A stretch of 64,000 nt of DNA from Candidatus Krumholzibacteriia bacterium (GTDB lineage Bacteria; Krumholzibacteriota; Krumholzibacteriia; LZORAL124-64-63): positions 6,147 to 70,146 of the forward strand of contig JAZBOO010000280.1 of assembly GCA_036351155.1 (NCBI GenBank). The letters are read 5' to 3'. Each line of letters opens with the position of its first letter. The stretch's first letter is position 1. A program made the translations under genes and the position numbers. This document shows, one piece after another, positions 5,946 through 55,581 of the stretch. The notes beneath the pieces were generated by a model. The model saw only the letters and a list, made by a program, of their open reading frames with translations. It was not told the DNA's origin and did no database searches.

Positions 5946-5953
5946 GAGCCAAA

Positions 5954-7267: not shown

Positions 7268-7293
7268 CCGCCATCGCGATCCGGAAATTGGAC

Positions 7294-7329
7294 GGCTCAG
7301 GGACCCTGCTCCCTGAGCCGTTTTGTTTC
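7294..7329 (+). terminator. Rho-independent terminator of surA: GGCTCAGGGA-ccctgc-TCCCTGAGCC followed by GTTTTGTTT
   Basis: Perfect 10-bp GC-rich stem, 6-nt loop and a U-rich tail, 27 nt after the surA stop. It overlaps the last codons of the convergent minus-strand gene. Confidence 0.75.
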
Positions 7330-8787: not shown

Positions 8788-8939
8788 GGGTGCTCCTGTT
8801 CGGGGAGAAAGTTGACCGGGACATTATGACCTTCCGGGCACGGATTGTGCAACCTATCACCTGAACAGAACGTGCACGGCCCCCGGGCCGGGCTGCGGCT
8901 GGACCCCAGAACGGGTCCGTCAAACCACAGGAGAAGACC

Positions 8940-11816: not shown

Positions 11817-11859
11817 TTCCGGACCCGACCGCGCACCCATCCGAACAGCGGAGCATACC

Positions 11860-17682: not shown

Positions 17683-17683
17683 C

Positions 17684-18304: not shown

Positions 18305-18434
18305 ACACAGTATATGTTAAATTCATGGGAGAGTATCCCGGTTTTTAACCGCAACATGCCGCGTTTCTGGTTGGGCTTCTCGTTCAAATTCCCTGTCACC
18401 CCAGGGAGGCCCTGGAATTATGGAGGACCGTGAG

Positions 18435-30394: not shown

Positions 30395-30446
30395 GCAGCC
30401 CCCGAGAGCATCCGGAAGGACGCCCATGACTTCGCACCTCAGGATC

Positions 30447-31127
30447 ATGACACGTGGCCGGCAGGTTTTCTCCCTGCTGGTCGTCCTGTTGATGGCCGGA
30501 GGCGGGGCAGTGCTGGCGCGTCAGTCCGACCAGGCCGAGGTGCGCATCGCCCGCCTGCATTACGATGGGGGCGGCGACTGGTACTGCGACCCGAGCAGTC
30601 TGCCCAACTGGCTGGAACAGTTCAGCCGACGTACGGGCATTGCCACGGCGGCCACCGAGGCGGTGGTTACCCTGGATAGCGAGGATCTGTATCAGTATCC
30701 CTTCCTCTACCTGAGTGGACACGGCCGCATTGATCTGAAGCAGGAAGATCTGAGCGAGCTGCGCCGGTATCTCGAGGCCGGCGGGTTTCTCTACGCCGAC
30801 GACAACTACGGGCTGGACCCCTCGTTCCGTCAGATGATCGCGCAGCTGTTTCCCGAGCGGGAGCTGGCACCCATCGGAGCCGATCATCCCATTTTCCGAG
30901 CCTTCTATCGGTTGCCGGGGGTGCCCAAGATCCATCAGCACGATGGGGAACCTGCCCAGGCTTTCGGCGTATCCCATGAGGGCCGTCTGGTGGTGTTCTG
31001 CACCTGGAGCGCGGACATCGGCGATGGACTGGAGGACGCGGACGTCCACGGCGATCCCCCGCATGTGCGGGAGGCGGCCACCCAGATGGCGGTCAACGTG
31101 TTGATGTATGCCCTGACTCATCCGTAA
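30447..31127 (+). CDS. DUF4159-like secreted protein (class I glutamine amidotransferase-like fold)
   Basis: Signal peptide, RLHYDGGGDWYCD and FLYLSGHG...GGFLYADDNYG blocks that I recall as the DUF4159 family. Family assignment is from memory, not a search. Confidence 0.55.
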   Translation: MTRGRQVFSLLVVLLMAGGGAVLARQSDQAEVRIARLHYDGGGDWYCDPSSLPNWLEQFSRRTGIATAATEAVVTLDSEDLYQYPFLYLSGHGRIDLKQEDLSELRRYLEAGGFLYADDNYGLDPSFRQMIAQLFPERELAPIGADHPIFRAFYRLPGVPKIHQHDGEPAQAFGVSHEGRLVVFCTWSADIGDGLEDADVHGDPPHVREAATQMAVNVLMYALTHP

Positions 31128-31135
31128 CAGAAAAA

Positions 31136-34924: not shown

Positions 34925-36867
34925 GCAAGAGCCTGCTGATCATTCTTGTCCTGGGTGCCGTCATCCTGGGGGCATCACCCGCACCGGCGCAGGAGCAACA
35001 GGGGCCCCGTCTGGTCCCACCGCGAGCGCAGCGGGGTGTGGTGCAGTCCGGACAGCAGCTGGCGGATCTGCGTCGCCGCGTCCTGGAGCTCGACCGCCTG
35101 ATCGGGCTGGGCAGTGTGGCCCGAGCCGAATCGCTGCTGGAAGACCTTGCGCAACACAGTCTGCTGAAGGACGAGCTGGTCAGCCGCCGCATCAAGCTGG
35201 CGCAGCTCCGCGACGACCATCGCCAGGCGGTGGATCTGAGCCGGGAGGCGGTCATCTCCCAGCCGCTGAATGCGGCCCTCTGGCGTTCGTTGACCAGCTC
35301 ACTGCTGGCGGTGGCCGAGCCCGACAGTGCCCGCGAGGCGGCCGGCATGTTCATCGCCACCAGCCCCAATGCCCGCAGTGCCGGAATGGTGGCGGTGGAA
35401 CTGTTCCAGATGGCGCAGCGGCCCCGGGTCAGCCTGGGGTTGATCGACTCGCTGCGGATCTCGCTGGCCGAGCCCCGGTATCTGGGCCGTCAGCGGGCGG
35501 TGTGCCTGCTGCAGCTGGGCGAACCCGAGGAGTCGGCCGATGAGGTGGTGGCCGAGCTCAGGTACAACCCCTTCAACATTTCCCTGCTGCGCACCGATTT
35601 GCTGGAAGAGGCCTACCAGCCGGGAAGGCACCAGGATTTTCTGGACCGCTTGAAGAATCGCGCTGCGGAATCCGGGAGCCGGACGGCCGAGTCGGTTCTG
35701 CTGGCCAACCTGTACCTGGCCGATGGACAGGCGGAGCCGGCCCTGGAGGCCATCGCCTCAAGCTTTGACACGCGCAGCTCCCAGATCACCGTGCTGCAGA
35801 ACGGGGTGTCCCTGTCCCAGGAGCTGGAACTGCTGGAAGATCCCAGGCAGCGGCACGCCACGGTGGAGTACCTGCTGGACACCATGGCCCGTATGTGTGG
35901 CCCGGTGAATCCCGATCAGGGCCTGCGTCTGCGGGCGGCCGACCATCTGGCCCGGGTCTGTGAACAGGGGCTGGAAATGGGGGCGCTGGGGGGCGATCCA
36001 CGACAGGCCGTGGAGCGCTACGGCGAGTATCTGCAGCTGGTCCGGAAGGTGCACCCGGCCAGTCAGTATCTGTACTCCTCGCAGATCAAGCTGGCCGCCT
36101 ACACCCGTGATGAACTGCGCAAGCCCCGCCAGGCAGCGGGACGGCTGGAACGCATGCTCATGGATCTGGATCTGCCCACCGAGGGCGTGGCGCTGGTGCG
36201 CCTGACTCTGGGCGAGTGCTACCTGGCCGCCGGGGACACCGCGCGCGGGCGTACGGTGCTGACCCAGCTGGGGCGCGACCCCGAGTTCCGTGAAGCGGCG
36301 GGCCATGCTCATTTCCACCTGGCCCGGCTGGACCTGGCCGAGGGCCATTTCGCCACGGCCCGCGATCGTTTCGCCGTGGCGGCCATGGACAATCCCGCCG
36401 CCCCCTACGCCAACGATTCCCTGGAGCTGGGGCTGGCCATTGCCGAGGAGATGGACAATCCTTCCGGCGGCCCGGCCATCCTTCAGCTTTACGGGCAAAG
36501 CGTCTATTTCGATCTGACGCGCCGGCCGGAAGACCATCTGGCTGCACTGGAACATTTCGTGGCCCAGGCCGATCTGCGACTGGATCCTGACGACAAGCAG
36601 CACCTGCTGGAACGAGGGCGCAGGGAACTGGCCGAGGCCTACCAGGAGGCCGGGCGCTTGGAGGACGCGCTGGCCCAGTGGAACGCCATCGTTTTGAATC
36701 ACCCCGATGGGCGGCACCCCGCCCTGGCCCTGCTTTCTCGTGCCCAGCTGTTCGCCAGGACCGGGCGCCCCGAAGAATCCCGACAGGCCATGGAGCAGCT
36801 GCTGGCCCAGTACCCCGACTACCTGTTCGTCGAGGATGTGCGCGACGAGCTGAGGAATTTGCCATGA
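34921..36867 (+). CDS. Secreted TPR-repeat protein
   Basis: Signal peptide MSKSLLIILVLGAVILGASPAPAQ, then repeated amphipathic helix pairs rich in A/L/R/E with an all-helical TPR-like periodicity. ATGA overlap with the upstream stop. Confidence 0.7.
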   Translation: MSKSLLIILVLGAVILGASPAPAQEQQGPRLVPPRAQRGVVQSGQQLADLRRRVLELDRLIGLGSVARAESLLEDLAQHSLLKDELVSRRIKLAQLRDDHRQAVDLSREAVISQPLNAALWRSLTSSLLAVAEPDSAREAAGMFIATSPNARSAGMVAVELFQMAQRPRVSLGLIDSLRISLAEPRYLGRQRAVCLLQLGEPEESADEVVAELRYNPFNISLLRTDLLEEAYQPGRHQDFLDRLKNRAAESGSRTAESVLLANLYLADGQAEPALEAIASSFDTRSSQITVLQNGVSLSQELELLEDPRQRHATVEYLLDTMARMCGPVNPDQGLRLRAADHLARVCEQGLEMGALGGDPRQAVERYGEYLQLVRKVHPASQYLYSSQIKLAAYTRDELRKPRQAAGRLERMLMDLDLPTEGVALVRLTLGECYLAAGDTARGRTVLTQLGRDPEFREAAGHAHFHLARLDLAEGHFATARDRFAVAAMDNPAAPYANDSLELGLAIAEEMDNPSGGPAILQLYGQSVYFDLTRRPEDHLAALEHFVAQADLRLDPDDKQHLLERGRRELAEAYQEAGRLEDALAQWNAIVLNHPDGRHPALALLSRAQLFARTGRPEESRQAMEQLLAQYPDYLFVEDVRDELRNLP

Positions 36868-38135
36868 CCCGATTGCGATGGACCTTGCTGATTGCCGTGT
36901 TGTTGACCCTGGGCGGGTCGGGCGCAGCCCGGGCCCAGAGGTACCTGCTGGTGCCCATGGACCTGACCCAGAACAACCACCTGCGGGCGTACGGGCACGC
37001 CTTCCACACACTGCAGGCGGGGGACAAGGTCAACTGGCTGTTGAACTATCGCGGGGGCAGTTTTTTGATGGACGACACCCAGCGCGCCCGTCTCGATGCC
37101 CGCCTGCTGGGGGTGCGCTTCGAGGAGGTGGGCGAGGCGGATGTGGCCGCTATCCGGCAAATCGTCCAGCAGGAAAACATGGACGAGGTGCTGCTGGAAA
37201 CGCCGCCCCGCATTGCCGTGTACAGTCCGCCCAGCAAGCAACCCTGGGACGATGCGGTGACCCTGGCCCTGACCTATGCCGAGGTGCCCTACGATGTGAT
37301 CTACGACGAGGACATCATGGCCGGCCGCCTGGGTGACTACGACTGGCTGCACCTGCACCACGAGGATTTTTCGGGGCAGTACGGGAAGTTCTATGCCAGC
37401 TTCGGCTACGAGCCCTGGTACCTGGAACAGAAGCACCAGAGCGAGGAGATGGCGACCCGTCTGGGCTTCGACACGGTGTGGGAGCTGAAGCACGCGGTGG
37501 CCCAGACCATCCAGCAGTACGTGGACCAGGGCGGGTTCCTGTTCGCCATGTGCTCGGCCACCGACACCATCGAAATTGCTCTGGCCTGGCTGCACACCGA
37601 CATCGTGTCCGAACCCTTCGACAACACGCCCTATGACCTGGATTATCGCCGCAAGGTGGACTTCGAACAGACGTTCGGCCTGACCGATTTCAAGCTCGTG
37701 ACCAATCCGATGATGTATGAATTTTCGGATATCGACTCGAGCAACTACGCCCAGATGCGCGGCGCCGAGGCCGACTACTTCACCCTGTTCGCCTTTGCCG
37801 CCAAGTACGACCCGGTGCCGGCCATGCTTACCCAGAACCACGTCAACGTGATCAACGGATTTCTGGGACAAACCACCGGGTACTTCAAGAAGCACCTGAA
37901 GCGCTCGGTGATCGTTCTGGCTGCGGTGGAGGGCACGGACGAGGTCAAGTATATCCATGGCAAGCGGGGCATGGGCACCTGGACCTTTCTGGGCGGGCAC
38001 GACCCCGAAGATTACCAGCACCGGGTGGGTGATCCCCCCACCGATCTGGACCTGTATCCCACCAGCCCGGGATACCGTCTGATCCTCAACAATGTCCTTT
38101 TCCCGGCCGCCAAGAAGAAGCCGCAGAAGACTTGA
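36864..38135 (+). CDS. Secreted class I glutamine amidotransferase-like (ThuA/DUF4159-related) protein
   Basis: ATG overlaps the TPR gene stop (ATGA). Signal peptide MTRLRWTLLIAVLLTLGGSGAARA. DYDWLHLHHEDFSG...GGFLFAMCSATD resembles the GATase1-like core also seen in the 30447 protein. The ORF-track start at 36678 is an upstream artefact. Confidence 0.55.
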   Translation: MTRLRWTLLIAVLLTLGGSGAARAQRYLLVPMDLTQNNHLRAYGHAFHTLQAGDKVNWLLNYRGGSFLMDDTQRARLDARLLGVRFEEVGEADVAAIRQIVQQENMDEVLLETPPRIAVYSPPSKQPWDDAVTLALTYAEVPYDVIYDEDIMAGRLGDYDWLHLHHEDFSGQYGKFYASFGYEPWYLEQKHQSEEMATRLGFDTVWELKHAVAQTIQQYVDQGGFLFAMCSATDTIEIALAWLHTDIVSEPFDNTPYDLDYRRKVDFEQTFGLTDFKLVTNPMMYEFSDIDSSNYAQMRGAEADYFTLFAFAAKYDPVPAMLTQNHVNVINGFLGQTTGYFKKHLKRSVIVLAAVEGTDEVKYIHGKRGMGTWTFLGGHDPEDYQHRVGDPPTDLDLYPTSPGYRLILNNVLFPAAKKKPQKT

Positions 38136-38277
38136 TATTGTTGCCCGAGTTGGCCTTCTGGACATCGAGGATCAGTTTTCCTTGCTAACCTCTTGTAATC
38201 TGATAGGATTTACGGGTGATCCCATTCCGGATGGGACTGACCTGCCCCCTGAACAGGACGATCAAAGAGGAGGAAGC

Positions 38278-43032: not shown

Positions 43033-44031
43033 ATGTCAGGAAACGCACGCATCCTGGTCGCGGATGACGAGCCGCATATCCGTCGCATTCTGCAGTTTCT
43101 GCTGGAGAATGAGGGGTTTGAGGTCTATCTGGCCGAAGACGGCAGTCAGGCCTGGGAAGCGGTGCGTTCATTTCAGCCGGATCTGGTCCTCCTGGATGTG
43201 ATGATGCCACGGATGGATGGTTTTGCAGTACTGGACGAGATTCGTGCCGGTTACGAAACCGCCACCCTGCCGGTGATCATGTTGACGGCCAAGGGCGAAT
43301 CGGTGGACAAGGTGCGGGGCCTCAAGGGTGGGGCCAACGACTACGTCATCAAGCCCTTCAATCACGATGAATTGTTGTTGCGGGTGGGAAACCTGCTGGA
43401 AGTGACCCGGCGCGAGCGCGAGGCCAATCCCCTGACGGGTCTCCCCGGAAACCGTTCCATCGAGCGGGAAACCCTGAGGCGCATCAGCTCGAAGGATCCT
43501 TTCGGGTTCATGTACATCGATATCGATCGATTCAAGAGTTTCAACGACTACTATGGCTATTCCCGGGGCGACCACGCCATCAGCTATCTGGCGGGAGTGC
43601 TGGTCAGCTGTTCCCGTCGGTTCGGCACCGGAGACGATTTCGTGGGCCACGTGGGAGGCGACGACTTCGTCCTGATCACCTCCAGCACCAAGGCGGAGGC
43701 GCTGGCGCGCAAGATCATCGAGGAATTCGACGAGGGTATTGCCGGCCTGCACGACGTGGAGGACTACCGGCGGGGGTACCTGGAGGTGGAAAGCCGAGCG
43801 GGGGAAGTGGAGCAGTTCCCCTTGATCACCCTGACGGTGGCTCTGGTGAACAATGCCGAGGGCCGGTTCCGTCATCCCGCCGAGATCAGCGACACCATGG
43901 TGGAGCTGAAGAAGTACGGCAAGACCATGGCCAGCAGTGTCCTGGTCAGGGAGCGCCGGAATCGCCAGGGTGAAGAGGAGTTCGTGGCCACGGGTGTGAA
44001 AACGCGTGGAGAGGGACCCGATCATGAATAG
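43033..44031 (+). CDS. Response regulator with receiver domain plus GGDEF-type domain carrying a variant GGDDF motif
   Basis: ILVADDE...LLDVMMP...KPF receiver. GGDEF-domain blocks TGLPGNR, DIDRFKSFND and GHVGGDDFVLI. Confidence 0.85.
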   Translation: MSGNARILVADDEPHIRRILQFLLENEGFEVYLAEDGSQAWEAVRSFQPDLVLLDVMMPRMDGFAVLDEIRAGYETATLPVIMLTAKGESVDKVRGLKGGANDYVIKPFNHDELLLRVGNLLEVTRREREANPLTGLPGNRSIERETLRRISSKDPFGFMYIDIDRFKSFNDYYGYSRGDHAISYLAGVLVSCSRRFGTGDDFVGHVGGDDFVLITSSTKAEALARKIIEEFDEGIAGLHDVEDYRRGYLEVESRAGEVEQFPLITLTVALVNNAEGRFRHPAEISDTMVELKKYGKTMASSVLVRERRNRQGEEEFVATGVKTRGEGPDHE

Positions 44032-46285
44032 AACCGACCCGCGCCAGATCGGCAGTCAGGGACTGGAGCAGACGGGCTGGAGTGAGCTGGCCTGGCAGGA
44101 TCACTTGCCGGACCTGGAAGAATTTTTGCGCCTGGTGGCCGTGCGGAGTTTGGCTCTGGCGCCCGGAGGAGTGACAGCCATCGGGGTGCCCCCCGTGGGG
44201 ATCTCCTATCTGGCCCCTCTGCACCATCAGCTGACGGGACTGGCCTGTCGTCTTGCCCGCAAGAGTGGTCAGCCGGGCTGGGATGCCTGGCCCGCCGCCT
44301 GGACCAAGGGAACCTTCGGTGCCCACGGTGAACAGGGTGCGGGCACGGGACCCTGGCCTGATTACTGGGCCTTGCCGGTGACTCCCGTCGAAGGGTGGGC
44401 CTGGCGAGAAGAGCGACTGCAGGTTGATGGCGCGACCCTGATGACCATCCTGGTCCTGTTCCCCGAGGATGAAGGGATGCAGGATGAGGTGAAAAGCGGT
44501 CTGGCCAGCCTCGGGTCCGAACTGGTGGTTCTGCTGCGCATGTGGGTGGCGGCGCGACGGGCTCAGGCCCAGCTGTCCCGCCTGAGCACCGAGAACCAGG
44601 CCCTGACCCGGCTCAATGTTCTGCAGGAAAAAGCGGTGGCCCGGGCCAGCCATGAATTCAAGACCCCGTTGACTTCGATCACCGCCTACACCGATGCCCT
44701 GCGGGAACAGATCACCGATGACGATTTCCCTCATGCCACGGAATTTCTGGACGTGATCCGGTCCGAGGCCGGACGGTTGCTGAGACTGGTCAACCGGATC
44801 AGCGATCAATCCCGCCTGAACGCCGGTCTGGAACTGCTGGAAGCGGTGCCCACGGAACTTCCGGACCTGATCGAGGGGGCGGCCTCTGCCCTGGGTCCCA
44901 GCCTGGCGGAAAAGAACCTCCACCTGACCACCGACTTTGCCCCCCACCTGCCCCCGGTGATGGCGGACGCCGATCTGGTGCGGCAGGTTCTGGTCAACCT
45001 GATGGGCAATGCGGTCAAGTACACGCCGAAGGGCGGCAACATCGAAGTGGTGGTGAGCGAACGCGAGGCCACCGTCAGGATCAGCATCAACGACACCGGC
45101 GTGGGGATTGCCGAAGAGGAACTCCAGCGTATCTTCCGTGAATTCTACCGCACGCGCGAACAGGCCGCCCTGCACGAGGGAACCGGGCTGGGACTGGCCA
45201 TTGTCCGCAGCATCGTGAATCTGCACGGTGGCTTCGTGACCGCCCGCCGTCGCCAGCCGGCCGGCACCAGCTTTGCCGTGCACTTGCCCAAGGAAATCCA
45301 CGCGCCGCATCCCTTGCCTCTGGCCTATACCTCGCGTGTGGACCGGGACCAGGCCTGGCGTCTGGTGAGCACGGTGTGCCGCCTGGCCGCCGAGTTGACC
45401 GGAAGCATGTCCGTGGAAATCCAGTTGCCCGACGCGGAAGGCCGGCCGGTGACGGTGGCCTCCATGGGGCATGGTCATTCTGGCGGAGAGAGCCCCTGGC
45501 TGACCCAGGATCTGGGCCAGGGCGGGGGGGCCTGCGGTCGGCTGCGGGTGGGATCGCCGCGAGAAGGTCAAGGCTACGATCAGGCCCGGGAGAAACAGCT
45601 GGCGGTGATTGCCGAAACCGCCGCCCTGGCCTTGCGCAGTCTGCTGCCGGAAGGTGCCGAGGGATCGGACACTTCCTCCAGCACTCTGGTGGCCAAGGTG
45701 GCCGAGGCGGTCCAGGCCATCCTGCAGATCCGGCGGTCCGGGGTCCCCACCTCGACGGCCGAGGCTCTGGATCTGATGGAGAAGCTGGGCCAGGCCATGA
45801 AGCTCTCCCCCGAGGTCATCCGCCGCCTCTGTTACGCCGCTCTGGTCCATGATGCGGGCATGGCCCGGGTCGAGGTGGAAATCGTGATGGGCACCTCGGC
45901 CCTGTCCTGGGATCAACGCGACGAGGTGGAACGCCACGTGGAGCAGGGCCTGGAATTGATGGCTCCGTTGCTGCCGGATCCGGAAACCCGTTCCTGCATT
46001 GCGCATCATCATGAACGATTTGACGGCCAGGGTTACCCCGCGGGCCTCAAGGGTGAAGATATTCCTCTGGGAGCACGCCTTCTGGCGGTCATCGACACCT
46101 GGTTTGCTCTGACGCGTGAGCGTCCCTATCGCCCCTGCCTGTCTCCGGAAGAGGCCTGGCAGGAAATGGAAAAACATAGCGGAAGCCAGTTCGACGCCGC
46201 CGTCGTCCGCGCTTTCGGAGACGTGCTGGCGAGCGAGGGAATCATCCCCGGATTTCCCGCTCCAACCCACCAAGACCGGGGCTGA
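44024..46285 (+). CDS. Cytoplasmic histidine kinase fused to GAF-like and HD-GYP domains
   Basis: ASHEFKTPLTSI (H-box), NAVKYT / GTGLGLAIV (HATPase), then LVHDAGM ... HHHERFDGQGYP (HD-GYP). Start ambiguous: ATG 44006 or 44024, both overlapping the upstream gene end. Confidence 0.82.
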   Translation: MNRTDPRQIGSQGLEQTGWSELAWQDHLPDLEEFLRLVAVRSLALAPGGVTAIGVPPVGISYLAPLHHQLTGLACRLARKSGQPGWDAWPAAWTKGTFGAHGEQGAGTGPWPDYWALPVTPVEGWAWREERLQVDGATLMTILVLFPEDEGMQDEVKSGLASLGSELVVLLRMWVAARRAQAQLSRLSTENQALTRLNVLQEKAVARASHEFKTPLTSITAYTDALREQITDDDFPHATEFLDVIRSEAGRLLRLVNRISDQSRLNAGLELLEAVPTELPDLIEGAASALGPSLAEKNLHLTTDFAPHLPPVMADADLVRQVLVNLMGNAVKYTPKGGNIEVVVSEREATVRISINDTGVGIAEEELQRIFREFYRTREQAALHEGTGLGLAIVRSIVNLHGGFVTARRRQPAGTSFAVHLPKEIHAPHPLPLAYTSRVDRDQAWRLVSTVCRLAAELTGSMSVEIQLPDAEGRPVTVASMGHGHSGGESPWLTQDLGQGGGACGRLRVGSPREGQGYDQAREKQLAVIAETAALALRSLLPEGAEGSDTSSSTLVAKVAEAVQAILQIRRSGVPTSTAEALDLMEKLGQAMKLSPEVIRRLCYAALVHDAGMARVEVEIVMGTSALSWDQRDEVERHVEQGLELMAPLLPDPETRSCIAHHHERFDGQGYPAGLKGEDIPLGARLLAVIDTWFALTRERPYRPCLSPEEAWQEMEKHSGSQFDAAVVRAFGDVLASEGIIPGFPAPTHQDRG

Positions 46286-46296
46286 AAGAGGTTGTC

Positions 46297-46686
46297 ATGA
46301 TCGACTCGGCCAGGATTCTCATCGTGGATGACGAGAAGCCCATCGCCACGTTGCTGGCACAGACCTTCGAGCAGGAAGGGCATCAGGTGGCGAGCGCCCA
46401 CGACGGGATCGACTGCATGAACAAGATGGCCAGCTTCCGGCCCGACGTGGTGATCATGGACATCATGATGCCCAAGCTGGACGGCATCGACACCACCAAG
46501 CTGATCCGACGCAATCAGAGCTACGCGGGGACCATCATCGTGGCGCTGTCGGCCAAGGCCGATGAAGACACCCGCCACAAGATGAAGGACGTGGGAGCCA
46601 ACCTGTTCATGCGCAAGCCGTTTTCCATCGCCAAGCTGGTTGCCCGCGTGTCTCACATGCTGGAAACCCGATCGCAATCGAGGTAG
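46297..46686 (+). CDS. Single-domain response regulator (CheY-like)
   Basis: ILIVDDE, D..IMDIMMP, LSAK, KPF. Confidence 0.88.
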   Translation: MIDSARILIVDDEKPIATLLAQTFEQEGHQVASAHDGIDCMNKMASFRPDVVIMDIMMPKLDGIDTTKLIRRNQSYAGTIIVALSAKADEDTRHKMKDVGANLFMRKPFSIAKLVARVSHMLETRSQSR

Positions 46687-46692
46687 CCAGGG

Positions 46693-49347
46693 GTGACACA
46701 CGTCCTGACCATTCTGCTGACCGCTGGGCCAACCCTGACCGGGTTCTGGGCCGTGATGTCGGTATCGTGGTGGACGACACTGATTCTCATGGCCGCCAGC
46801 GGGGTGGGGGTCTGGGTGGGGCAGATGGGGCGCCGGCAATATCTGCGCCGCCGTCTCAGTGCCCAGGCGGAGCGCCAGGCGCGGCAAGAAAAAACCGCGC
46901 AGCTGAACCGCCGATGCCGGGTTCTGGAAAAAATTCTGGCGGTGTCCACGCGCCTCAGCCGGATTCGCAATCCCCAGGAATTGCAAACCCGGATTGTGGA
47001 AGCCGTGGCGGAGATCGGGGGATTCAACCGGGTGGTCCTGTACCTGTGGTCCGACAGCACGGGAGCCTTCGAAGCCCGCAGTTTTGCGGGAATGGACGCC
47101 GAACAGCAGAAGCAGGTGGGCGGGCACCAGGTGTCCCGGGTCGAGTATGCCGCGCGGTGCAACGTGCGCTTCCGTTTTTCGAACAGCTTCCTGGTCCACG
47201 ATGGTCCCGTTCAAGAAGGACCGGCGCGAGAACGCACCCCCGGTGACCCGGTGACCGGAGGCGGATCAGGCAAGGTCTGGCGCGCCGGACAAGTTCTGGT
47301 GGCCCCGTTGCTGAGTTCCGATGGTGAGGAGATCGGGTACCTGGATCTGGACGAACCCGTCCACGGTGAGGTGCCGGATGTGGTGGACCTGCGACAGCTG
47401 GAGTTCCTGTTCCAGCATGCGGCGGCCAGCCTGGAGTCGGCCGGCATTCATCACACCTTGGCCCGCAGCAACGCCGAGCTGCAGGTGGCCTCCGAGAAGC
47501 TGAACAGCCTGAACGACATGAAGAATAACTTCGTGGCGAATGTCAGTCACGAGTTGCGCACGCCGCTGACCTCGATCTCGGCCTACGCCGAGATGTTGCA
47601 GCAGAACATGGGCACCATGAGCGAAGAGGTGCGGAGCGAGTTCCTGAGGGTGATCCACAACGAGAGCCTGAAGCTGACCGACGTGATCAACGACCTGCTG
47701 GAACTGGGCAACATGGAAAACGGGCGGGTCCAGTCGCCGTCCATGACGGTGGACCTGACGGCCATGGTGACGCGTCTGGTGGATTCCTGGCGATCGCGCG
47801 CCCAGGAAAAGGGAATTGCCCTGAAACTGGAGTGTGATATTCCCGCGCTATCCATGCCTGCCGACGGATTGCTGATGCAGCAGATGCTGACCCACCTGCT
47901 GAGCAACGCCTTCAAGTTTTCCGCGAAGGGCGGACTGGTGCGGGTGACTCTGGCGGAAACGGGGACGGCGGTGCGATTGTCGGTCGAGGACCGCGGCATC
48001 GGCATTCCCGAGGAGAAGCTGGGACGTATTTTCGACCCGTTCTACCAGGTGGACGGCTCGGCCACGCGACAGCACAACGGACAAGGCGTGGGGCTGGCCA
48101 TCTGTCGGGATATCGTCAATCACCACGACGGGCGCATCTGGGCGGAAAATCTCCAGCCCAGGGGGGCCCGGTTCACGGTGCTGCTCCCGCGGCGTTCTCC
48201 GGTCTTGCAGCCCGTGGCCACCGATCCCATCAGCGGATCTCCTTTCCAGCCGGGCGAGTTCATGCAGCGGGTCATGCACTGGGTCGGGGAAAGCCTGGGG
48301 GTCCAGACGGCCACCCTGATGATGCCCGACTCGGACCATGAGTACCTGGCCATCCGGGCGGCGGTGGGCTTGCCGGAGTCGGTGGTCCAGAGTGCCCGGG
48401 TGCGACGGGGATCCGGGTTTGCCGGCCGGGTCTGGGAAAGCGGACAAACCCTCCTGGTGGATGACGTGGCTGCCGAGGGCCTGCCTGGGCGCGACCAGAG
48501 TGAACCCCGCTATTCCACGTCGAGCCTTCTGTGTGTCCCCTTGAAGAACAAGGACGAGTGCCTGGGGGTGGTGGCGGTCAACAACCGCTTCGACGGCAAG
48601 CCGCTGGACGCCGATGATCGCCTCCTGCTGGAAAGCCTGGCTCCCAGACTGGCCGAACTTTTACGGCGTCATGCCCACTGGCAGGCCGATTCTCATCATT
48701 TCGCCCAGATCCGGGATACCCTGCGGACCATCACGGGCATTGGCCACCTGCGCCAGGAAAGCCTCCTGGAAACCTGCCAGGAGATCTGCCTGGCCAGCGC
48801 GCGGGCGATCAACATGCCGGATGAAGATCTGCGGCACCTGGCCTTTGCCCTGCAGTTCTATGATGTGGGGCTGGGCTATGTCCCGCGGGAGCTGCTGAAC
48901 AAGCCCGGCCCCCTGGACGATGACGAGCAGCGCACGGTACGCCAGCACGTCAAGACGGGTCTGGTGGTCCTGGAGCCTCTGGCCGCGCCGTCCAAGATTC
49001 GCCAGTTGATCCTGCACCACCACGAGAACGTGGATGGGTCGGGTTATCCCGAAGGTCTGGCCGGGGAGTCCATTCCTCTGGGTTCTCGACTGTTGCGGCT
49101 GACCGACACCCTGGCGGCCCTGCTCAGCACCCGACCCTGGCGGCCGGCGCGCAGTCTGGATGAGGCTCTGGAGGAGATCCGCTGGGGCATCGGGACTCAT
49201 TATTGTCCGCGAATGGCCGAGATCTTCTTGCGGGAAGCTGAATTGCGCCGACCGCGGATAGTGGAGCAACAGGAACGCGGCATGGACCACGCCGTTTTCA
49301 AGCGGCCCGTTCTGGATCCCGCGCAGATGGCTCCCCTCAACAGTTGA
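46693..49347 (+). CDS. Membrane-anchored histidine kinase with GAF, HisKA/HATPase, second GAF and a divergent HD-GYP-like domain (Y-D instead of H-D)
   Basis: N-terminal TM helices. NVSHELRTPLTSI, NAFKFS, GQGVGLAICRDI. C-terminus FYDVGLGY ... HHHENVDGSGYP aligns to the HD-GYP of the 44024 protein with His replaced by Tyr. Confidence 0.82.
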   Translation: MTHVLTILLTAGPTLTGFWAVMSVSWWTTLILMAASGVGVWVGQMGRRQYLRRRLSAQAERQARQEKTAQLNRRCRVLEKILAVSTRLSRIRNPQELQTRIVEAVAEIGGFNRVVLYLWSDSTGAFEARSFAGMDAEQQKQVGGHQVSRVEYAARCNVRFRFSNSFLVHDGPVQEGPARERTPGDPVTGGGSGKVWRAGQVLVAPLLSSDGEEIGYLDLDEPVHGEVPDVVDLRQLEFLFQHAAASLESAGIHHTLARSNAELQVASEKLNSLNDMKNNFVANVSHELRTPLTSISAYAEMLQQNMGTMSEEVRSEFLRVIHNESLKLTDVINDLLELGNMENGRVQSPSMTVDLTAMVTRLVDSWRSRAQEKGIALKLECDIPALSMPADGLLMQQMLTHLLSNAFKFSAKGGLVRVTLAETGTAVRLSVEDRGIGIPEEKLGRIFDPFYQVDGSATRQHNGQGVGLAICRDIVNHHDGRIWAENLQPRGARFTVLLPRRSPVLQPVATDPISGSPFQPGEFMQRVMHWVGESLGVQTATLMMPDSDHEYLAIRAAVGLPESVVQSARVRRGSGFAGRVWESGQTLLVDDVAAEGLPGRDQSEPRYSTSSLLCVPLKNKDECLGVVAVNNRFDGKPLDADDRLLLESLAPRLAELLRRHAHWQADSHHFAQIRDTLRTITGIGHLRQESLLETCQEICLASARAINMPDEDLRHLAFALQFYDVGLGYVPRELLNKPGPLDDDEQRTVRQHVKTGLVVLEPLAAPSKIRQLILHHHENVDGSGYPEGLAGESIPLGSRLLRLTDTLAALLSTRPWRPARSLDEALEEIRWGIGTHYCPRMAEIFLREAELRRPRIVEQQERGMDHAVFKRPVLDPAQMAPLNS

Positions 49348-49432
49348 CCAGTTGAGACTCAACCTGGTGCCGGAGATGCCGATCACCGGGGACAGGAAAC
49401 GCCCCATTCGCCCATAGACCGGAGGAACGGCC

Positions 49433-49804
49433 TTGTTCAAAGTCCTGATCGCCGATGACGAGCACAACATTCGCAACATCCTGGATTTCAGCCTGCATGC
49501 CGAAGGTTTCGATGTCATCGCCGTGCACAGCGGGGAGGAGGCCTTCGCGCGGGCGGTGGAAGAGATCCCGAGCCTGATCATTCTGGACGTCATGATGCCC
49601 GGCCAGGGGGGCATGGAAACCTGCAAGCAATTGAAGCAGGACCAGCGGACCGCCGGCATTCCCGTGATTCTCCTGACGGCGCGCAGCAGCAAGCAGGATC
49701 GTGAGGAAGGGATGGCCTGTGGCGCCGATCAGTACATCACCAAGCCCTTCAGCCCTCAGAAAGTGATCGGGGCGGTCCAGGAACTTCTGGGTGCCATGTC
49801 CTGA
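49433..49804 (+). CDS. Single-domain response regulator (CheY-like)
   Basis: GGAGGAA lies 6 nt upstream of TTG 49433. VLIADDE, LDVMMP, TAR, KPF. Confidence 0.85.
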   Translation: MFKVLIADDEHNIRNILDFSLHAEGFDVIAVHSGEEAFARAVEEIPSLIILDVMMPGQGGMETCKQLKQDQRTAGIPVILLTARSSKQDREEGMACGADQYITKPFSPQKVIGAVQELLGAMS

Positions 49805-49916: not shown

Positions 49917-51923
49917 GTGGACTTTCTGGTCAACATCATCTTGCCCGTTCCCCTCTTGCAGGACTTTTCCTACCGTTGTGTTGTGGACGAGGAAGCGCAA
50001 GAGACGGCCCCGGAAGCCGGCGATCTGGTGGCGGTTCCCTTCGGCCGCCGCAAGAAGGTCATCGGCCTGGTGGTGGCGGTGAAACCGCTGGCCGCCGAGG
50101 TGACCAAGGTGGACGGTTTCACCCTGAAAAACGTGGCCCATCGCTATGGACCGGAATATCGGATCACCGGAGAGCGCCGCCGCCTTCTGGACTGGATGGC
50201 GGCCTACTATGCCTTGCCCGCCGGAGAGGTGGTGCCCCTGTTCCATCCTCCTGGTCCCGGGACCCGATCCAGAGGCAAGGCCGCCACCGAGGAGTTCCCC
50301 ACCGGCGATAACCAGAAGATCGTGCTGACCCCCGCCCAGAACCGTGCTGTGGCCATGGCCGCCGAGCACCTTGAGGCCGATCGCTTCGGAGTGATGTTGC
50401 TGCATGGCGTGACGGGCAGCGGCAAGACCGAGGTCTACCTGACGGTCATCGAACAGGCCCTGGCCGCGGGGAAAGGGGCCATTTTTCTGCTCCCGGAAAT
50501 TGCCCTGACGCCCCAGATGCTGGCCCGGGTCACCGCGCGCTTCGGCAGTCGAGTGGCCGCCCTTCATTCCGGTCTGGCCGCCGGCCAGAGGTGCCAGGTG
50601 CACGAGAAGGCCGCGCGGGGGGAAATCGAGGTGGTGGTGGGTCCGCGATCTGCCCTGTTTGCGCCGGTGCAGAACCTGGGTGTGATCGTGGTGGACGAGG
50701 AACACGAGGGGTCCTACAAGCAGGATGAAAAACCGCGCTACCACGCCCGTCACGCCGCGCTGGTGCGGGGCCGGGAAAACGGGGCGGTGGTCATTCTGGG
50801 CTCGGCCACACCCGATCTCGAAAGCATGGACAATGCTCGCCGCGGGCGCTATCAGCTGCTGGAGCTGCCCGACCGCATGGGCGGACACCTCCCTGTGGTG
50901 GAGCTGGTGGACATGCGGGGACCGCAGGCCATGGCAGGATTCTCTCCCCACCTGGTGGAGGCCATCGGTGAAACTCTGGATCAGAAGCGTCAGGTCATCC
51001 TGTACTACAACCGTCGGGGCTTTGCGCGCGTGATGCAATGCCGGGACTGCGGCGAGGTGGTCATGTGCCCCAACTGCGATATCGGGCTCACCTATCACCT
51101 GCGTCCCCGCCGCCTGCTGTGTCACTACTGCGACCACACGCGCGAGGTATGCGACACCTGTCCCGCCTGTGGATCCGAGAACTTCCTGCCCCAGGGGGGC
51201 GGCACCGAGAAGGTGGAGCTCAATCTGGAAGCCCATTTTCCGGAGGCGCGGCTGCTTCGGCTGGACCGCGACACGACCTCCCGCCGCGGCAGCCATCACC
51301 GCATCCTGGCCAGCTTTGCCCGCCGGGAAGCCGATATCCTGGTGGGCACCCAGATGGTGGCCAAGGGGCACCACTTCCCCGGGGTGGGTCTGGTGGGGGT
51401 GCTGGCGGCTGATGATGGTCTGGGCCTGCCCGATTTCCGCGCCGCCGAACGCACCTTCCAGCTGTTGACCCAGGTGGCCGGCCGCAGCGGGCGCACCGAG
51501 AAGGGCCGGGTGGTGTTTCAGACCTATCGCCCGGACGATCCGGTGATTTCGGCGGCCAGCTGCCACGACTATCATCAGTTCGAGGAGCAGGAGCTGCCCC
51601 AGCGGCAGGCCCTGGGCTATCCTCCCGGCCGGCGCCTGGTGCGGGTGGCCGTCAGCGGTCGCCTGTTGAAGCGCGCCGAGGAAGTGTCCGGCCAGCTGGG
51701 CGACGTCTTGCGTACCAACCTGGCCGGGCCCGAGATCACCGTCCTGGGCCCCGCCCCGGCCGTCTTTCCCCGCCTTCATGATCGCTACCGATTTCAGATC
51801 CTGATCAAGGGCACTCTGGGCCTGGAGGCCAAGGCCTGGCTGGCTCAAACCCTCGAGGCCTTGCGGCAGCAGTTCCGGGACATCGATGTGTTCCACGACG
51901 TCGATCCCACGTCGGTTTTTTAG
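49917..51923 (+). CDS. priA: Primosomal protein N' (PriA helicase)
   Basis: N-terminal 3'-DNA-binding region, Walker A GVTGSGKTEVY, DEEHEGSYKQ (DEAH), Cys-rich Zn module CPNCD...CHYCDH...CPACG. GTG 49917 is chosen because the ORF-track start at 49791 would contain the upstream terminator. Confidence 0.88.
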   Translation: MDFLVNIILPVPLLQDFSYRCVVDEEAQETAPEAGDLVAVPFGRRKKVIGLVVAVKPLAAEVTKVDGFTLKNVAHRYGPEYRITGERRRLLDWMAAYYALPAGEVVPLFHPPGPGTRSRGKAATEEFPTGDNQKIVLTPAQNRAVAMAAEHLEADRFGVMLLHGVTGSGKTEVYLTVIEQALAAGKGAIFLLPEIALTPQMLARVTARFGSRVAALHSGLAAGQRCQVHEKAARGEIEVVVGPRSALFAPVQNLGVIVVDEEHEGSYKQDEKPRYHARHAALVRGRENGAVVILGSATPDLESMDNARRGRYQLLELPDRMGGHLPVVELVDMRGPQAMAGFSPHLVEAIGETLDQKRQVILYYNRRGFARVMQCRDCGEVVMCPNCDIGLTYHLRPRRLLCHYCDHTREVCDTCPACGSENFLPQGGGTEKVELNLEAHFPEARLLRLDRDTTSRRGSHHRILASFARREADILVGTQMVAKGHHFPGVGLVGVLAADDGLGLPDFRAAERTFQLLTQVAGRSGRTEKGRVVFQTYRPDDPVISAASCHDYHQFEEQELPQRQALGYPPGRRLVRVAVSGRLLKRAEEVSGQLGDVLRTNLAGPEITVLGPAPAVFPRLHDRYRFQILIKGTLGLEAKAWLAQTLEALRQQFRDIDVFHDVDPTSVF

Positions 51924-51963: not shown

Positions 51964-51992
51964 TTGTGCCAGCCGGAGCCCTTTGGTATACT
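51964..51992 (+). promoter_or_regulatory. Near-consensus sigma70-type promoter TTGTGC-17 bp-TATACT upstream of the cysteine protease gene
   Basis: Hexamers and 17-bp spacer read directly. The ATG at 52056 is preceded by GAAAGG. Confidence 0.5.
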
Positions 51993-52055
51993 TTATTCAT
52001 CAATACCCCCGAATACGAAATCATCGGGATTAATGCACTGTCTGAAAGGTTTGCC

Positions 52056-55000
52056 ATGCGCAAGTCCTGCATCTTGCTGGGAATCTGTCTGTTTCTCGGG
52101 CTGGCGTCCGGAGCTGTCGCCGCCGATCAACTGGATATCGAGGCCATTCGTCAGGACATCGAGCGCTACGGCTGGTCCTTCGAAGTGGACGATGCCTTCT
52201 CGCGCAGTCTGACCCCGGAGCAGCGGCAGAACCTGCGCGGTTACCGCCCCCCGGAGGACTACCAGAAGATTCTGGACGAGAACTTGAAGATCTTTCCGGT
52301 GGACAAGGATCTGCCCTCGAGTCTGGACTGGCGGGATGTGAACGGCGTGACCTCGGTCAAGAACCAGGGGGACTGCGGAAGTTGCTGGGCCTTCGCGGCC
52401 ACCGCCGAGCTGGAATCGTTCATCAAGATCTACTACGGCGAAGACACCAACCTGTCCGAGCAGCAGGTGGTTTCCTGCAATCCCTACGGGGCCGATTGCG
52501 ATGGGGGCTGGGCCAACGCGGCTTACTTCGTGTTCCGCCAGTATGGGGCCGCCCAGGAAAACTGCATTCCCTACCTGGGCATGAGCCCGCCCGCTGCTCC
52601 GTGCGAGCAGGATGATTTCAAGAAGTACGGCTTCATCACCGGGTGGCATTCCATTTCCAACAACGTGCAGCAGATCAAGGAAGCCCTTCAGGACGGTCCG
52701 GTGTGCACGGCCATTGACGCCAGCGATGAGTTCGAGGCCTACGAGAGTGGCTGCTACGATGTGCCCGGCGGCTGGACCAATCACCTGGTGCTCATCGTGG
52801 GTTACGACGATCGTGCCTGCGGGAACAACGGGGCCTGGATCATCAAGAACAGCTGGGGTTACGACTTCGGCGATGGCGGGTACATCTACGTCCAGTACGG
52901 AGCCGGATCCACGGGACAGAGCGTGACCCAGCTGGAGTATACCCCCCCTCCGACTTCCATTTCCATCCACACCGGGGTCACCGAAGAGCCCATCTATGCC
53001 GACGAGACTGCTCTGATCGAGTGGGGCACCTCGGGGGCCGCCGCACCCCTGGTGGACATCTACTTCGGCAACGAGGGCCACTGTCACCCGGTGCTGGTGG
53101 CGGAGAATTTGCCCAACACCGGCAGCTACAACTGGACGGTGCCCAACCTGGGGACCAACTACGGCAGCCTGGTGGTCTATCCCAGCAGCGGCACCGAGGA
53201 CGGCTTCGGGATCACCGAGGAATACATCCGGGTGGTCGGTCACAAGACCCGTTACGTCTCGCCCAGCGGCAGTAACACCGCGCCTTTCGAATCTCCCGAA
53301 ACGGCGGCCCACAGCATCAGTGATGCCGTGGTGGCCTGCACCGGGACCGACAGCGTGCTGGTGGCAGGCGGCCACTATCTCGGCACGGTGACCGTCGGAA
53401 CCACGGTGCGACTGCTCGGTGGCTACAGCCAGGATTTCAGCGTCCGCGACCCGGAGACCTACCCCACCGTGATCCAGAGCGGCAACACCGGAATGCGTTT
53501 CCTGGAAGGCTCCGGGGACTTCGGGATGGCCGACGGATTCGTGTTCCGCGATTGCACCGGCAGTCCCGGCAGCGTGCCGGAATCAGGGAGTCATGGCGGC
53601 GGCATCTTTGTGCGCAACGCCTCGCCCCTGATTCTCAACTGTGTGTTCGAAGAAAATCTGGCCTCGGCCAGTTCAGGGACGGGCTTCGGTGGCGGTATCT
53701 GCGTGGTGGGCGGCCAGCCCGAGATCAGGGATTGCGTTTTCCGCGACAACGTGGGCAGCCAGGGTGGCGCGGTCGGTATTTTCGATGGGGCCCACGCGAC
53801 CCTGATCGATTGTCAAATTCTGGGCAATGCCTGCCGGGACAGCTCCAGCGCCAACACCGGCGCCGGCCTGTTCGTCAGAAATGCCGCCGTGACTCTCCAG
53901 GGCGGCGCCATCGGTGGCAATGGCGGGGGAGCGGGTGCGGGCATGCACCTCCTGGGTTCCCAGGCGGACCTCAGCCGAGTGGACATCCGGAACAACCGGG
54001 CCCAGGTCGATGGGGGCGGTATTCTGGCCGTGGACTCCACACTGGATCTGGCCAATGTGAAGCTGACCGGTAACGTGTCGAACACCGGCAGTGGTGGTGG
54101 ACTGTCCGGTCAGGGAACCTCTCTCACCCTGCGCAACGTGCAGATCACCGACAACCGCAGTGCCATCCTGGGTGGTGGCATGTTCGCCAGCGGGGCCACC
54201 GGACTGGTGGAGAATTGCCTGGCCAGCGGCAACACCGCGGGCAATACGGGGGGCCTGATGGCCCTGGCTTCCGGGCCCATGACCGTGCGCAACAATATCG
54301 TCAGCGAGAATTTTGGCGGCGGCCTCACCGTGATCGGTTCGGAGGTCACCGTCGGCTCGAACAACGTGTGGCAGAACGAAGGCGGCGACTACGTGTCCAT
54401 GGCCGTACCGGCGGCTGATTTTTCCGCCGATCCTCTGTTCCTGAATGCGGCGGCGGGCGATTACGGTCTGGCGCAGTATTCTCCGTGTGTGGACCGTGGC
54501 GAGATGGCCGCGGATTGCCTGGACCCGGACGGCTCCCGAGCGGACGTGGGTCTGCTGGGTGGCCCGGGCGCGGACTTCGTGGCCCCTGATCATGTGACCG
54601 GGGCGGCACTCGAGGATCTGGGCGGCGGAACCTGGCGCCTGACCTGGAACGCCCTGGGGGCCGACAACATCAGCCACTACGTGGTTTACCGGGACACCTC
54701 CGAGGTGTTCGAGCCCTCGCCCAGCAAGGCCCTGGCCACCATCGACCACCCGGGAACGGTGTTCGAGGATTCCCCGGGTATGGAGTGCTACTATCTGGTG
54801 GCGGCCATCGATGAGACGGGGTACAGCGGCGGATATTCCGCGCAGGTGAGCACAGCCGGAAGCATCAGTGCGGCCGGCGACAGCGATTTGCCCCGAAGCC
54901 TGGCCATCGCCAAGGTGGTGCCCAACCCCTTCAATCCCCGGACCACCCTGAGCTACGATGTGCCCCGGACCGGGCGCGTGGAACTGGCGGTTTACGACAT

Positions 55001-55172
55001 CAAGGGGCGGCTGGTGAAACGGCTGGTTTCGGGGACGGTCCAGGCGGGTCGGCACACCGTGAGCTGGAGCGGGCAGGACAGTCATGGCCATTCGGTGGCC
55101 GCCGGCGTGTACTTTGCCCGGATGAGTGATGGGCACTCGGCCACGACGACGAAGATGGTGCTGACCAAGTAG
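52056..55172 (+). CDS. Secreted papain-family (C1A) cysteine protease with parallel beta-helix repeats and a C-terminal T9SS/FlgD-Ig-like sorting domain
   Basis: Signal peptide MRKSCILLGICLFLGLASGAVAAD. QGDCGSCWAFA (catalytic Cys), GWTNHLVLIVGY (His), NSWG (Asn). Long G/N/S/T-rich repeats in the middle. C-terminus VVPNPFNPRTTLSYDVPRTGRVELAVYDIKGRLV...GVYFARMSDG. Confidence 0.85.
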   Translation: MRKSCILLGICLFLGLASGAVAADQLDIEAIRQDIERYGWSFEVDDAFSRSLTPEQRQNLRGYRPPEDYQKILDENLKIFPVDKDLPSSLDWRDVNGVTSVKNQGDCGSCWAFAATAELESFIKIYYGEDTNLSEQQVVSCNPYGADCDGGWANAAYFVFRQYGAAQENCIPYLGMSPPAAPCEQDDFKKYGFITGWHSISNNVQQIKEALQDGPVCTAIDASDEFEAYESGCYDVPGGWTNHLVLIVGYDDRACGNNGAWIIKNSWGYDFGDGGYIYVQYGAGSTGQSVTQLEYTPPPTSISIHTGVTEEPIYADETALIEWGTSGAAAPLVDIYFGNEGHCHPVLVAENLPNTGSYNWTVPNLGTNYGSLVVYPSSGTEDGFGITEEYIRVVGHKTRYVSPSGSNTAPFESPETAAHSISDAVVACTGTDSVLVAGGHYLGTVTVGTTVRLLGGYSQDFSVRDPETYPTVIQSGNTGMRFLEGSGDFGMADGFVFRDCTGSPGSVPESGSHGGGIFVRNASPLILNCVFEENLASASSGTGFGGGICVVGGQPEIRDCVFRDNVGSQGGAVGIFDGAHATLIDCQILGNACRDSSSANTGAGLFVRNAAVTLQGGAIGGNGGGAGAGMHLLGSQADLSRVDIRNNRAQVDGGGILAVDSTLDLANVKLTGNVSNTGSGGGLSGQGTSLTLRNVQITDNRSAILGGGMFASGATGLVENCLASGNTAGNTGGLMALASGPMTVRNNIVSENFGGGLTVIGSEVTVGSNNVWQNEGGDYVSMAVPAADFSADPLFLNAAAGDYGLAQYSPCVDRGEMAADCLDPDGSRADVGLLGGPGADFVAPDHVTGAALEDLGGGTWRLTWNALGADNISHYVVYRDTSEVFEPSPSKALATIDHPGTVFEDSPGMECYYLVAAIDETGYSGGYSAQVSTAGSISAAGDSDLPRSLAIAKVVPNPFNPRTTLSYDVPRTGRVELAVYDIKGRLVKRLVSGTVQAGRHTVSWSGQDSHGHSVAAGVYFARMSDGHSATTTKMVLTK

Positions 55173-55196: not shown

Positions 55197-55235
55197 AAAA
55201 AAGGCCCCGGGCTTGCACCCGGGGCCACTTTTTTT
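55197..55235. terminator. Bidirectional intrinsic terminator AAAAAA-GGCCCCGGG-cttgca-CCCGGGGCC-TTTTTTT between convergent genes
   Basis: Perfect 9-bp GC stem flanked by an A6 tract and a T7 tract, giving U-tails in both orientations. Confidence 0.85.
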
Positions 55236-55581
55236 ACTCCGACCACACGGCCAGCTCATTGCCGCCGGGCTCGCTGAAGTGGAAACGCTTGCCCCCGGGA
55301 AACTCGTAGGTCTCCTTCACAATGGTCCCCCCGGCAGCTTTCACCTTGGCCACCACGGAATCCAGATCCGGAGCGTAAAAAACCACCAGAGGGCCGCCGC
55401 TTGCCGCCTTGTCGCCCTGGGCGAAACCACCGCGCATGGCGGCGTCCTTGAAGCTGGCGTACTCCGGTCCAAAGTCCTTGAACTCATAGCCGAAAACCTC
55501 CTGGAAGAAGGCCTTGCTACCGTTCAGATCGGTGGTGGTGAATTCGATGTAATCGATGGCGTTGGGATGGCTCATGTTCAA
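55234..55581 (-). CDS. VOC-family (glyoxalase / bleomycin-resistance-like) protein
   Basis: IDYIEFTTTDL...FFQEVFGYEF...GGPLVVFYAPDLD...FHFSEPGGNELAVWS pattern of the betaalphabetabetabeta VOC fold. Confidence 0.65.
   Translation of the reverse strand: MNMSHPNAIDYIEFTTTDLNGSKAFFQEVFGYEFKDFGPEYASFKDAAMRGGFAQGDKAASGGPLVVFYAPDLDSVVAKVKAAGGTIVKETYEFPGGKRFHFSEPGGNELAVWSE

Follow-up and report, generated by a model that had tools for sequence, protein, structure and literature searches.

A predicted papain-family zymogen with a beta-helix stalk and a terminal sorting domain in Krumholzibacteriia

A gene next to priA in a Candidatus Krumholzibacteriia bacterium (GenBank assembly GCA_036351155.1, contig JAZBOO010000280.1) encodes a protein in which a papain-like protease domain is followed by a long series of other modules. 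The window analysed here is the 64 000-nucleotide stretch of that contig (positions 6147–70 146 of the forward strand), and the gene lies at 52056–55172 on its plus strand, with a product of 1038 residues. We conclude that its probable product is a papain-family (C1A) zymogen, exported and then presented on the outside of the cell by a rigid stalk, with digestion of environmental protein as its probable function. A preliminary description of the locus had called the protein giant; large is the better word, and every sequence motif that it quoted is present. Invariance is stated below for the 50 homologs of a family alignment (A1), on which an AlphaFold2 model with a mean predicted local distance difference test score (pLDDT) of 88.8 was built. 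A look-up of the exact protein in public assemblies gave no match, so genomic context was taken from relatives with 94, 62 and 49% identity, and 80 loci were fetched in a genome scan for relatives.

The three domains named in the preliminary description were recovered by a Pfam search, with Peptidase_C1 (PF00112) matching residues 86–284 with 168.9 bits (cutoff 20.7; E = 2.3e-49), Beta_helix at E = 1.5e-16 and FlgD_ig at E = 3.5e-10 (full length). A phmmer search of the PDB gave 170 C1A chains at E ≤ 1e-5, the best being ananain (E = 2e-41). The motifs CGSCWAF (residues 107–113), NH (residues 242–243) and NSWG (residues 265–268) align residue by residue with ananain and bromelain, and the domain adopts the two-lobed papain fold. 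Gln104, Cys110, His243, Asn265 and Trp267, the equivalents of papain Gln19, Cys25, His159, Asn175 and Trp177, are invariant, as are the cysteines equivalent to the papain pairs C22–C63 and C56–C95. The Cys/His/Asn triad is thus intact and aligned to the papain positions, as had been proposed, and on sequence grounds the protein is assigned to peptidase family C1, subfamily C1A.

The head of the protein is likely to be synthesized as a zymogen. In the AlphaFold2 model the pro-region (residues 24–85) is small and helical, and the top Foldseek matches are zymogens (procathepsins K and L, pro-bromelain and pro-papain) that align over 281–294 columns compared with ∼221 for mature enzymes, the proenzyme structures adding ∼60 aligned residues. 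With procathepsins L, K and S, the alignments made by phmmer begin at query residues 46–61, i.e. within the pro-region. The predicted fold and these alignments point to an N-terminally shortened, sequence-divergent propeptide of the cathepsin L type. The preliminary description had found no obvious pro-domain, which does not agree with zymogens being the best structural matches, and had allowed for an inhibitory propeptide of about 75 residues, of which the presence is made likely and the length is corrected to 62 residues.

The final ∼80 residues carry the tail VVPNPFNPRTT...YDIKGRLV...GVYFARMS, which had been described as a FlgD-Ig-like or Por-secretion C-terminal domain (CTD), and this description is upheld by two profiles whose cutoffs are passed: TIGR04183, the type A sorting domain of type IX secretion systems (T9SS), with 30.6 bits against 23, and PF18962 (Por_Secre_tail), with 30.3 bits for the tail alone against a gathering score of 27 (just 23.4 bits in the full-length scan). 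The isolated tail scores 44.8 bits with FlgD_ig. The final β-sandwich of the model spans residues 950–1036, and across the family the CTD is conserved as strongly as the catalytic domain, with Asp981 and Gly984 (YDIKGRLV), Lys1033 (KMVLTK) and Leu1036 invariant. In P. gingivalis, secretion depends on two CTD motifs, a glycine in the β3–β4 loop and a lysine in the last strand (PMC11285876), and Gly984 and Lys1033 are judged from the sequence to correspond to them. A hidden Markov model of the family CTD gave 56 matches among the open reading frames (ORFs) of 83 fetched loci; in all 56 the domain occurs once per protein and 0–4 residues from the stop codon, and exactly at the stop in 53 of them. 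The CTD-bearing proteins range from 85 to 1915 residues, share the terminus K-[MILV]-x-[LY]-[LA]-[KR] and include a GH13 pullulanase (from a Krumholzibacteriia metagenome-assembled genome, MAG), a subtilase and a C25 protease of the gingipain kind, as well as Big_5/FN3 proteins and β-helix proteins. A sorting signal is preferred over a plain immunoglobulin-like (Ig) module because the domain is always terminal, single and attached to unrelated cargo, and the CTD behaves as a terminal sorting signal.

The modules suggest the following course of events. The protein begins with a signal peptide (MRK at the start, AVA/A cleavage motif), where conservation within the family is lowest and the pLDDT is below 50 (residues 1–23), and the Sec pathway would carry the precursor to the periplasm. 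There the protein would fold with the propeptide in the active-site cleft while the papain-type disulfides form. We infer that the protease is exported by the T9SS, with the CTD directing passage through the outer membrane, after which a PorU-type sortase would cut off the CTD, leaving the protein attached to the surface or released. The presumed site of this cut, by likeness to PorU substrates, is the linker before the CTD, where the pLDDT is below 50 at residues 936–944 of the full model and at residues 93–96 of a C-terminal model. Loss of the propeptide, either autocatalytic or in trans, would activate the enzyme, and the stalk would hold the protease head away from the membrane. Gln104 would form the oxyanion hole and, with Cys110, His243 and Asn265, complete the predicted catalytic centre. 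Since the occluding loop and the extra chains of exopeptidase cathepsins are both missing, the enzyme is predicted to act on external proteins as an endopeptidase, and its most likely role would be the digestion of environmental protein for uptake.

Several observations count against parts of this account. The T9SS core genes (SprA/Sov, PorV, PorU and GldK/L/M/N) were found neither among the genes of the window in Pfam and NCBIfam scans nor among the large ORFs with a CTD and the envelope-like ORFs scanned in ∼0.2 Mb of Krumholzibacteriota loci, a sample of genomes of several Mb that says nothing on the absence of a T9SS. A literature search on Krumholzibacteriota and the T9SS gave no paper linking the two, and other phyla of the Fibrobacterota–Chlorobiota–Bacteroidota (FCB) group are listed as possible T9SS holders with Krumholzibacteriota not named (PMC11285876). 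In sequence-profile comparison, the CTD matches FlgD Ig domains (E = 5e-7) better than it does the solved CTDs of P. gingivalis, namely those of PorU (E = 0.028), RgpB (E = 0.05) and PorZ (E = 0.24). Pfam Inhibitor_I29 has no match in the pro-region even at E ≤ 10, so that the zymogen assignment rests on the predicted structure and partial phmmer alignments, and the pro-region is short compared with the ∼96 residues usual for I29-type propeptides. Finally, an exoenzyme with a purely nutritional role would not usually show such strict synteny and conservation. Two candidate T9SS components were rejected. A tetratricopeptide-repeat (TPR) protein of the window matches PorW/SprE with 17.5 bits against a cutoff of 250, which is noise, and a Propeptide_C25/Peptidase_C25/CTD protein of an unclassified high-GC MAG (locus L045) is matched by the PorU model through its CTD only (51 versus 420 bits) and is regarded as gingipain-like cargo. 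The latter belongs to a cluster of CTD-tagged genes (2719–18641 of that locus) together with a 1915-residue protein, a C1–CTD protease and a 528-residue CTD protein.

The conservation of the gene is best seen in its relatives. More than 120 full-length relatives of ∼1050 residues, with 43–94% identity, were found in a protein search; in their sources, several are assigned to Krumholzibacteriota or Krumholzibacteria or carry the product names `C1 family peptidase' or `T9SS type A sorting domain-containing protein'. Alignment A1 is nearly free of insertions and deletions over its whole length. The relatives with 94, 62 and 49% identity have the same gene neighbourhood, consisting of TsaD, a response regulator with GGDEF, a histidine kinase with HD, a response regulator, a histidine kinase with GAF and HD, a response regulator and PriA, followed by the protease, and in all the Krumholzibacteriia ortholog loci that were sampled PriA lies immediately upstream. 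Only Krumholzibacteriota loci yielded the six-module architecture (17 complete copies and four cut by contig ends); the pro-C1 head by itself is present in many phyla. In Krumholzibacteriia, the gene for the six-module protein is inherited vertically. Distant full-length relatives (33–36% identity) in Zodletone Krumholzibacteriota are without the PriA linkage, and one of these MAGs has two copies (L017 and L018). A literature search on Krumholzibacteriota with secretion or peptidases gave no paper describing orthologs of the protease.

This pattern gives some weight to a different role for the same exported molecule, namely that of a housekeeping surface maturase or sheddase which processes other surface or T9SS cargo proteins and is not nutritional. 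Examples of such processing are that of the C. difficile S-layer precursor by Cwp84 and that of fimbrial and other surface proteins by gingipains. Nutritional exoenzymes usually vary in copy number and position; here, an ortholog lies directly 3′ of priA in housekeeping surroundings in every Krumholzibacteriia locus sampled, down to 44% identity, although such synteny may reflect vertical inheritance alone and one Zodletone MAG carries two divergent copies. The whole window is of housekeeping character and includes Mfd, SurA, FtsEX, SecDF, TsaD and PriA. The entire 1038 residues and the promoter are also conserved, which would suit a maturase, but no candidate substrate gene is linked (the neighbours encode PriA, two-component proteins and central metabolism), and the sequence holds nothing that separates a maturase from a digestive enzyme. 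We regard the maturase role as possible, if unlikely. A more specific proposal, that a type IX-like pathway exports the protease to the Krumholzibacteriia surface, of which it would be the dedicated maturase or sheddase, and that its FlgD-Ig-type CTD represents a distinct, uncharacterised branch of CTD sorting in non-Bacteroidota FCB phyla, is distinctly unlikely.

For the nutritional protease exported through its CTD, a second alternative concerns the export step: the CTD may be merely a FlgD-type Ig module for binding or structure, in a protein that is periplasmic or leaves the cell by another route. FlgD Ig domains are indeed its best solved profile relatives, ahead of the PorU, RgpB and PorZ CTDs (E = 0.03–0.24), but only the Ig-like part of FlgD matches; the FlgD N-terminal domain was not found, the NCBIfam FlgD equivalogs score 17–28 bits against cutoffs of 230–383, and no flagellar genes lie near the protease in the window or in the neighbourhoods of its relatives. 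A Foldseek search with the two-domain C-terminal model returned generic FN3 tandems, with PorU only at rank 42, and is uninformative for the identity of the CTD, and the failure to locate T9SS core genes in the window or the sampled loci also leaves room for this alternative. Against it stand the two curated cutoffs that the tail passes and the single, terminal position of the domain on unrelated cargo with a conserved terminus in 56 of 56 cases, since a generic Ig module would also be expected at internal or tandem positions. We consider a plain Ig module highly improbable.

Between the catalytic domain and the CTD, the protein contains a right-handed parallel β-helix with the fold of pectin-lyase-type enzymes. 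A β-helix of about 500 residues had been proposed earlier; the helix is present with ∼450 residues (397–845), and the β-sandwich domains on either side of it (residues 298–396 and 846–935) had been overlooked. The first sandwich matches PF10342 at E = 0.0047, under the cutoff of that family, which is precomputed for the homologs P0070, P0075 and P0108 and scores 36.7 bits in L017; the second has weak profile matches to FN3 proteins (anosmin, E = 0.002). A search of the PDB with the middle 650 residues gave only noise and no sequence relative of solved structure. Conserved positions of the β-helix are occupied by Gly (30), Asn (12), Asp (9), Pro (8) and Ala (7), besides a single His and two Arg, and neither Lys nor Glu is among them; the charged ones are His513, Arg399, Arg745 and scattered Asp, and Lys makes up 0.4% of the region. 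The catalytic sets of the pectin-lyase fold (the Lys/Arg base and Ca ligands of PL1/PL6/PL9; the Asp triad, His and Arg-Ile-Lys of GH28) were not seen among these positions. The β-helix most likely acts as a stalk, with a length estimated at ∼9–10 nm or more from ∼19 coils at 4.8 Å in standard β-helix geometry. That the β-helix is itself a polysaccharide lyase or hydrolase of a bifunctional protein, attacking glycoproteins, capsules or cell walls, e.g. in predation, is scarcely credible and was set aside as a leading view, with conserved catalytic residues missing, identities to lyases and hydrolases of only 8–17%, adhesins and autotransporter passengers scoring equally well and no sequence relative of solved structure.

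The gene has its own expression signals, which are listed with the protein modules in Table 1. The reading frame is open from a GTG at 51966 or an ATG at 52056 to the TAG at 55170–55172, and the ATG is the true start. The GTG was ruled out because it lies within the conserved promoter and because the orthologs begin at the ATG downstream of the Shine–Dalgarno sequence, AAGG or GGAGG being located 7–10 nt 5′ of the equivalent ATG in 10/10 orthologous loci. The preliminary description had noted the promoter TTGTGC-17-TATACT and called it near-consensus; the element is present and conserved among orthologs, but the wording was too strong for a promoter of the extended −10 type with a −35 hexamer that agrees with the consensus at 3/6 positions only. 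Owing to this −35 match, it was not listed by a consensus promoter scanner run on the window. A TTGTnn-17-(T/C)G(G/C)TATAAT-like element is kept in orthologous priA–protease spacers: across ten independent spacers, the best promoter scores have a mean of 9.3 compared with 6.67 ± 0.37 for shuffled sequences (0/1000 shuffles reach it), and TGnTAnnnT is present in seven of the ten compared with 1.2 expected. The bidirectional terminator noted earlier was called on both strands as a hairpin flanked by an A-run and a T-run, and is common to the protease gene and a convergent glyoxalase-family gene (55234–55581, minus strand). Between its conserved extended −10 promoter and this bidirectional terminator, the protease gene appears to form a transcription unit of its own. 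A terminator-like hairpin with a T-run at 51896–51914 overlaps the priA stop codon in front of a 132-nt priA–protease spacer, and priA and the protease gene appear to be separate units because priA ends in this hairpin of its own. An Rfam scan of the whole window, including the 5′ leader of the protease gene, found no family.

Table 1. Positions in the window of the protease modules and expression signals.
Feature	Position	Strand	Basis
Promoter: −35 TTGTGC (51964–51969), 17-nt spacer, TATACT (51987–51992) preceded by TGG (extended −10)	51964–51992	+	Read directly
Shine–Dalgarno-like GAAAGG	52042–52047	+	8 nt 5′ of ATG; AAGG/GGAGG kept at the same distance in 10/10 orthologous loci
Sec signal peptide, residues 1–23 (MRKSCILLGICLFLGLASGAVA, cleaved before AD)	52056–52124	+	Basic n-region, hydrophobic core and AVA-A cleavage motif, read by eye from the sequence
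Putative propeptide, residues 24–85, shortened cathepsin L (I29)-like	52125–52310	+	
Papain-family (C1A) catalytic domain, residues 86–297; Gln104 (52365–52367), Cys110 (52383–52385), His243 (52782–52784), Asn265 (52848–52850), Trp267	52311–52946	+	
β-Sandwich domain 1, residues 298–396, weakly Kre9/KNH-like Ig	52947–53243	+	AlphaFold2 all-β, pLDDT ∼90
Right-handed parallel β-helix, residues 397–845, ending in invariant DPDGSxxD loop (residues 823–830)	53244–54590	+	
FN3-like β-sandwich domain 2, residues 846–935	54591–54860	+	AlphaFold2 seven strands; weak FN3 profile matches; Foldseek FN3 tandems
Flexible linker, residues 936–949, presumed site of CTD removal	54861–54902	+	Low pLDDT
T9SS type A C-terminal sorting domain, FlgD-Ig-like subtype, residues 950–1038	54903–55169	+	TIGR04183, PF18962 and FlgD_ig profiles
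Bidirectional intrinsic terminator	55203–55226	Both	Hairpin GGCCCCGGG-cttgca-CCCGGGGCC; A-run upstream, T-run downstream; called on both strands

Elsewhere in the window, the two-component cluster named above (43033–49804) lies directly 5′ of priA and is syntenic in Krumholzibacteriia relatives down to ∼47–50% identity. Three consecutive ORFs of 786, 206 and 213 residues (15322–19058) have no Pfam or NCBIfam match and a GC content of 0.59–0.60 compared with ∼0.64, with a lower GC content at third codon positions as well. DUF4159, DUF4175 and TPR (Bat-like) genes are found at 30426–36864. A 448-residue ORF on the minus strand (36822–38165) has no family match and an atypical codon-position GC content (0.82/0.40/0.62), and may not be a real gene. 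In the fetched loci, an Eisenbacteria MAG (L068, 1087–5842) also has PriA immediately upstream of a pro-C1 protease; the priA–protease pair may be older than the divergence of these FCB phyla or may have arisen twice. In the distant relatives with 33–36% identity (L017, L019, L020 and L024), the protease directly follows what seems to be an operon of the MoxR, DUF58 and BatA type, as judged from N-terminal sequences only. The L024 copy (9911–13406) is split into two overlapping ORFs (pro-C1–Ig–β-helix and β-helix–FN3–Ig–CTD); the split reflects either a frameshift that made the copy a pseudogene or an indel error, the MAG being a long-read one. Four MAGs (L005, L007, L009 and L012) with orthologs and synteny of the Krumholzibacteriia type are publicly labelled `uncultured Fibrobacteraceae bacterium', which is probably a taxonomy-mapping artefact of submission.

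Among characterized proteins, the head is most similar to the cathepsin-L-like zymogens of subfamily C1A (procathepsins L, K and S, pro-papain, procaricain and pro-bromelain/ananain), with which it shares the fold, the Gln/Cys/His/Asn/Trp set, two papain disulfides and the arrangement of an N-terminal, putatively inhibitory propeptide before an endopeptidase-type domain of ∼212 residues. It differs from them in a propeptide of 62 rather than ∼96 residues, which has no N-terminal helices bearing the ERFNIN region and no detected I29 profile, in the position of the third disulfide, which appears from the sequence to be different, and in being a bacterial enzyme followed by ∼740 residues of non-catalytic modules. 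The gingipains RgpB and Kgp comprise a signal peptide, an inhibitory propeptide, a cysteine protease, one or more Ig-like domains and a type A CTD, which is cleavable and serves T9SS export and surface attachment (PMC11285876). The present protein follows the same overall module logic as these and other T9SS proteases of Bacteroidota, but its protease is C1A and not C25, a long β-helix is inserted, its CTD is FlgD-Ig-like and distant from the P. gingivalis CTDs, and its host phylum has no documented T9SS. The serine protease autotransporters of Enterobacteriaceae and other autotransporter passengers (Vag8) have a serine (S6) instead of a cysteine (C1A) protease and a C-terminal outer-membrane β-barrel instead of an Ig-like CTD of ∼90 residues, with no homology beyond the generic fold. 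Of the bacterial C1A enzymes, xylellain from Xylella fastidiosa (PDB entry 3OIS; 20% identity) is without stalk and CTD, and Cwp84 from Clostridioides difficile carries Gram-positive cell-wall-binding repeats. The automatically annotated Krumholzibacteria MAG proteins (`C1 family peptidase' or T9SS type A CTD protein) are true orthologs with the same six modules, and those that were checked occupy the same site by priA; the copy in the window is another member of this family and does not differ from them in kind.

The finding is sound but fairly ordinary, a probable T9SS-type cargo protease of family C1A that is well conserved in Krumholzibacteriota, and its import is modest. It does not overturn current understanding, and the automatic annotation of public pipelines already labels the protein a C1 peptidase or a T9SS-CTD protein. 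It provides a fully parsed example of how a probable surface protease of the uncultivated FCB group is built, with a papain-type zymogen head, a rigid β-helix stalk and a terminal sorting tag. The C1A head with its short propeptide, which is widespread in prokaryotes on varied tails, is a convenient family for biochemistry. If the proposed export route is true, functional sorting of the T9SS type would extend to a phylum without a documented T9SS.

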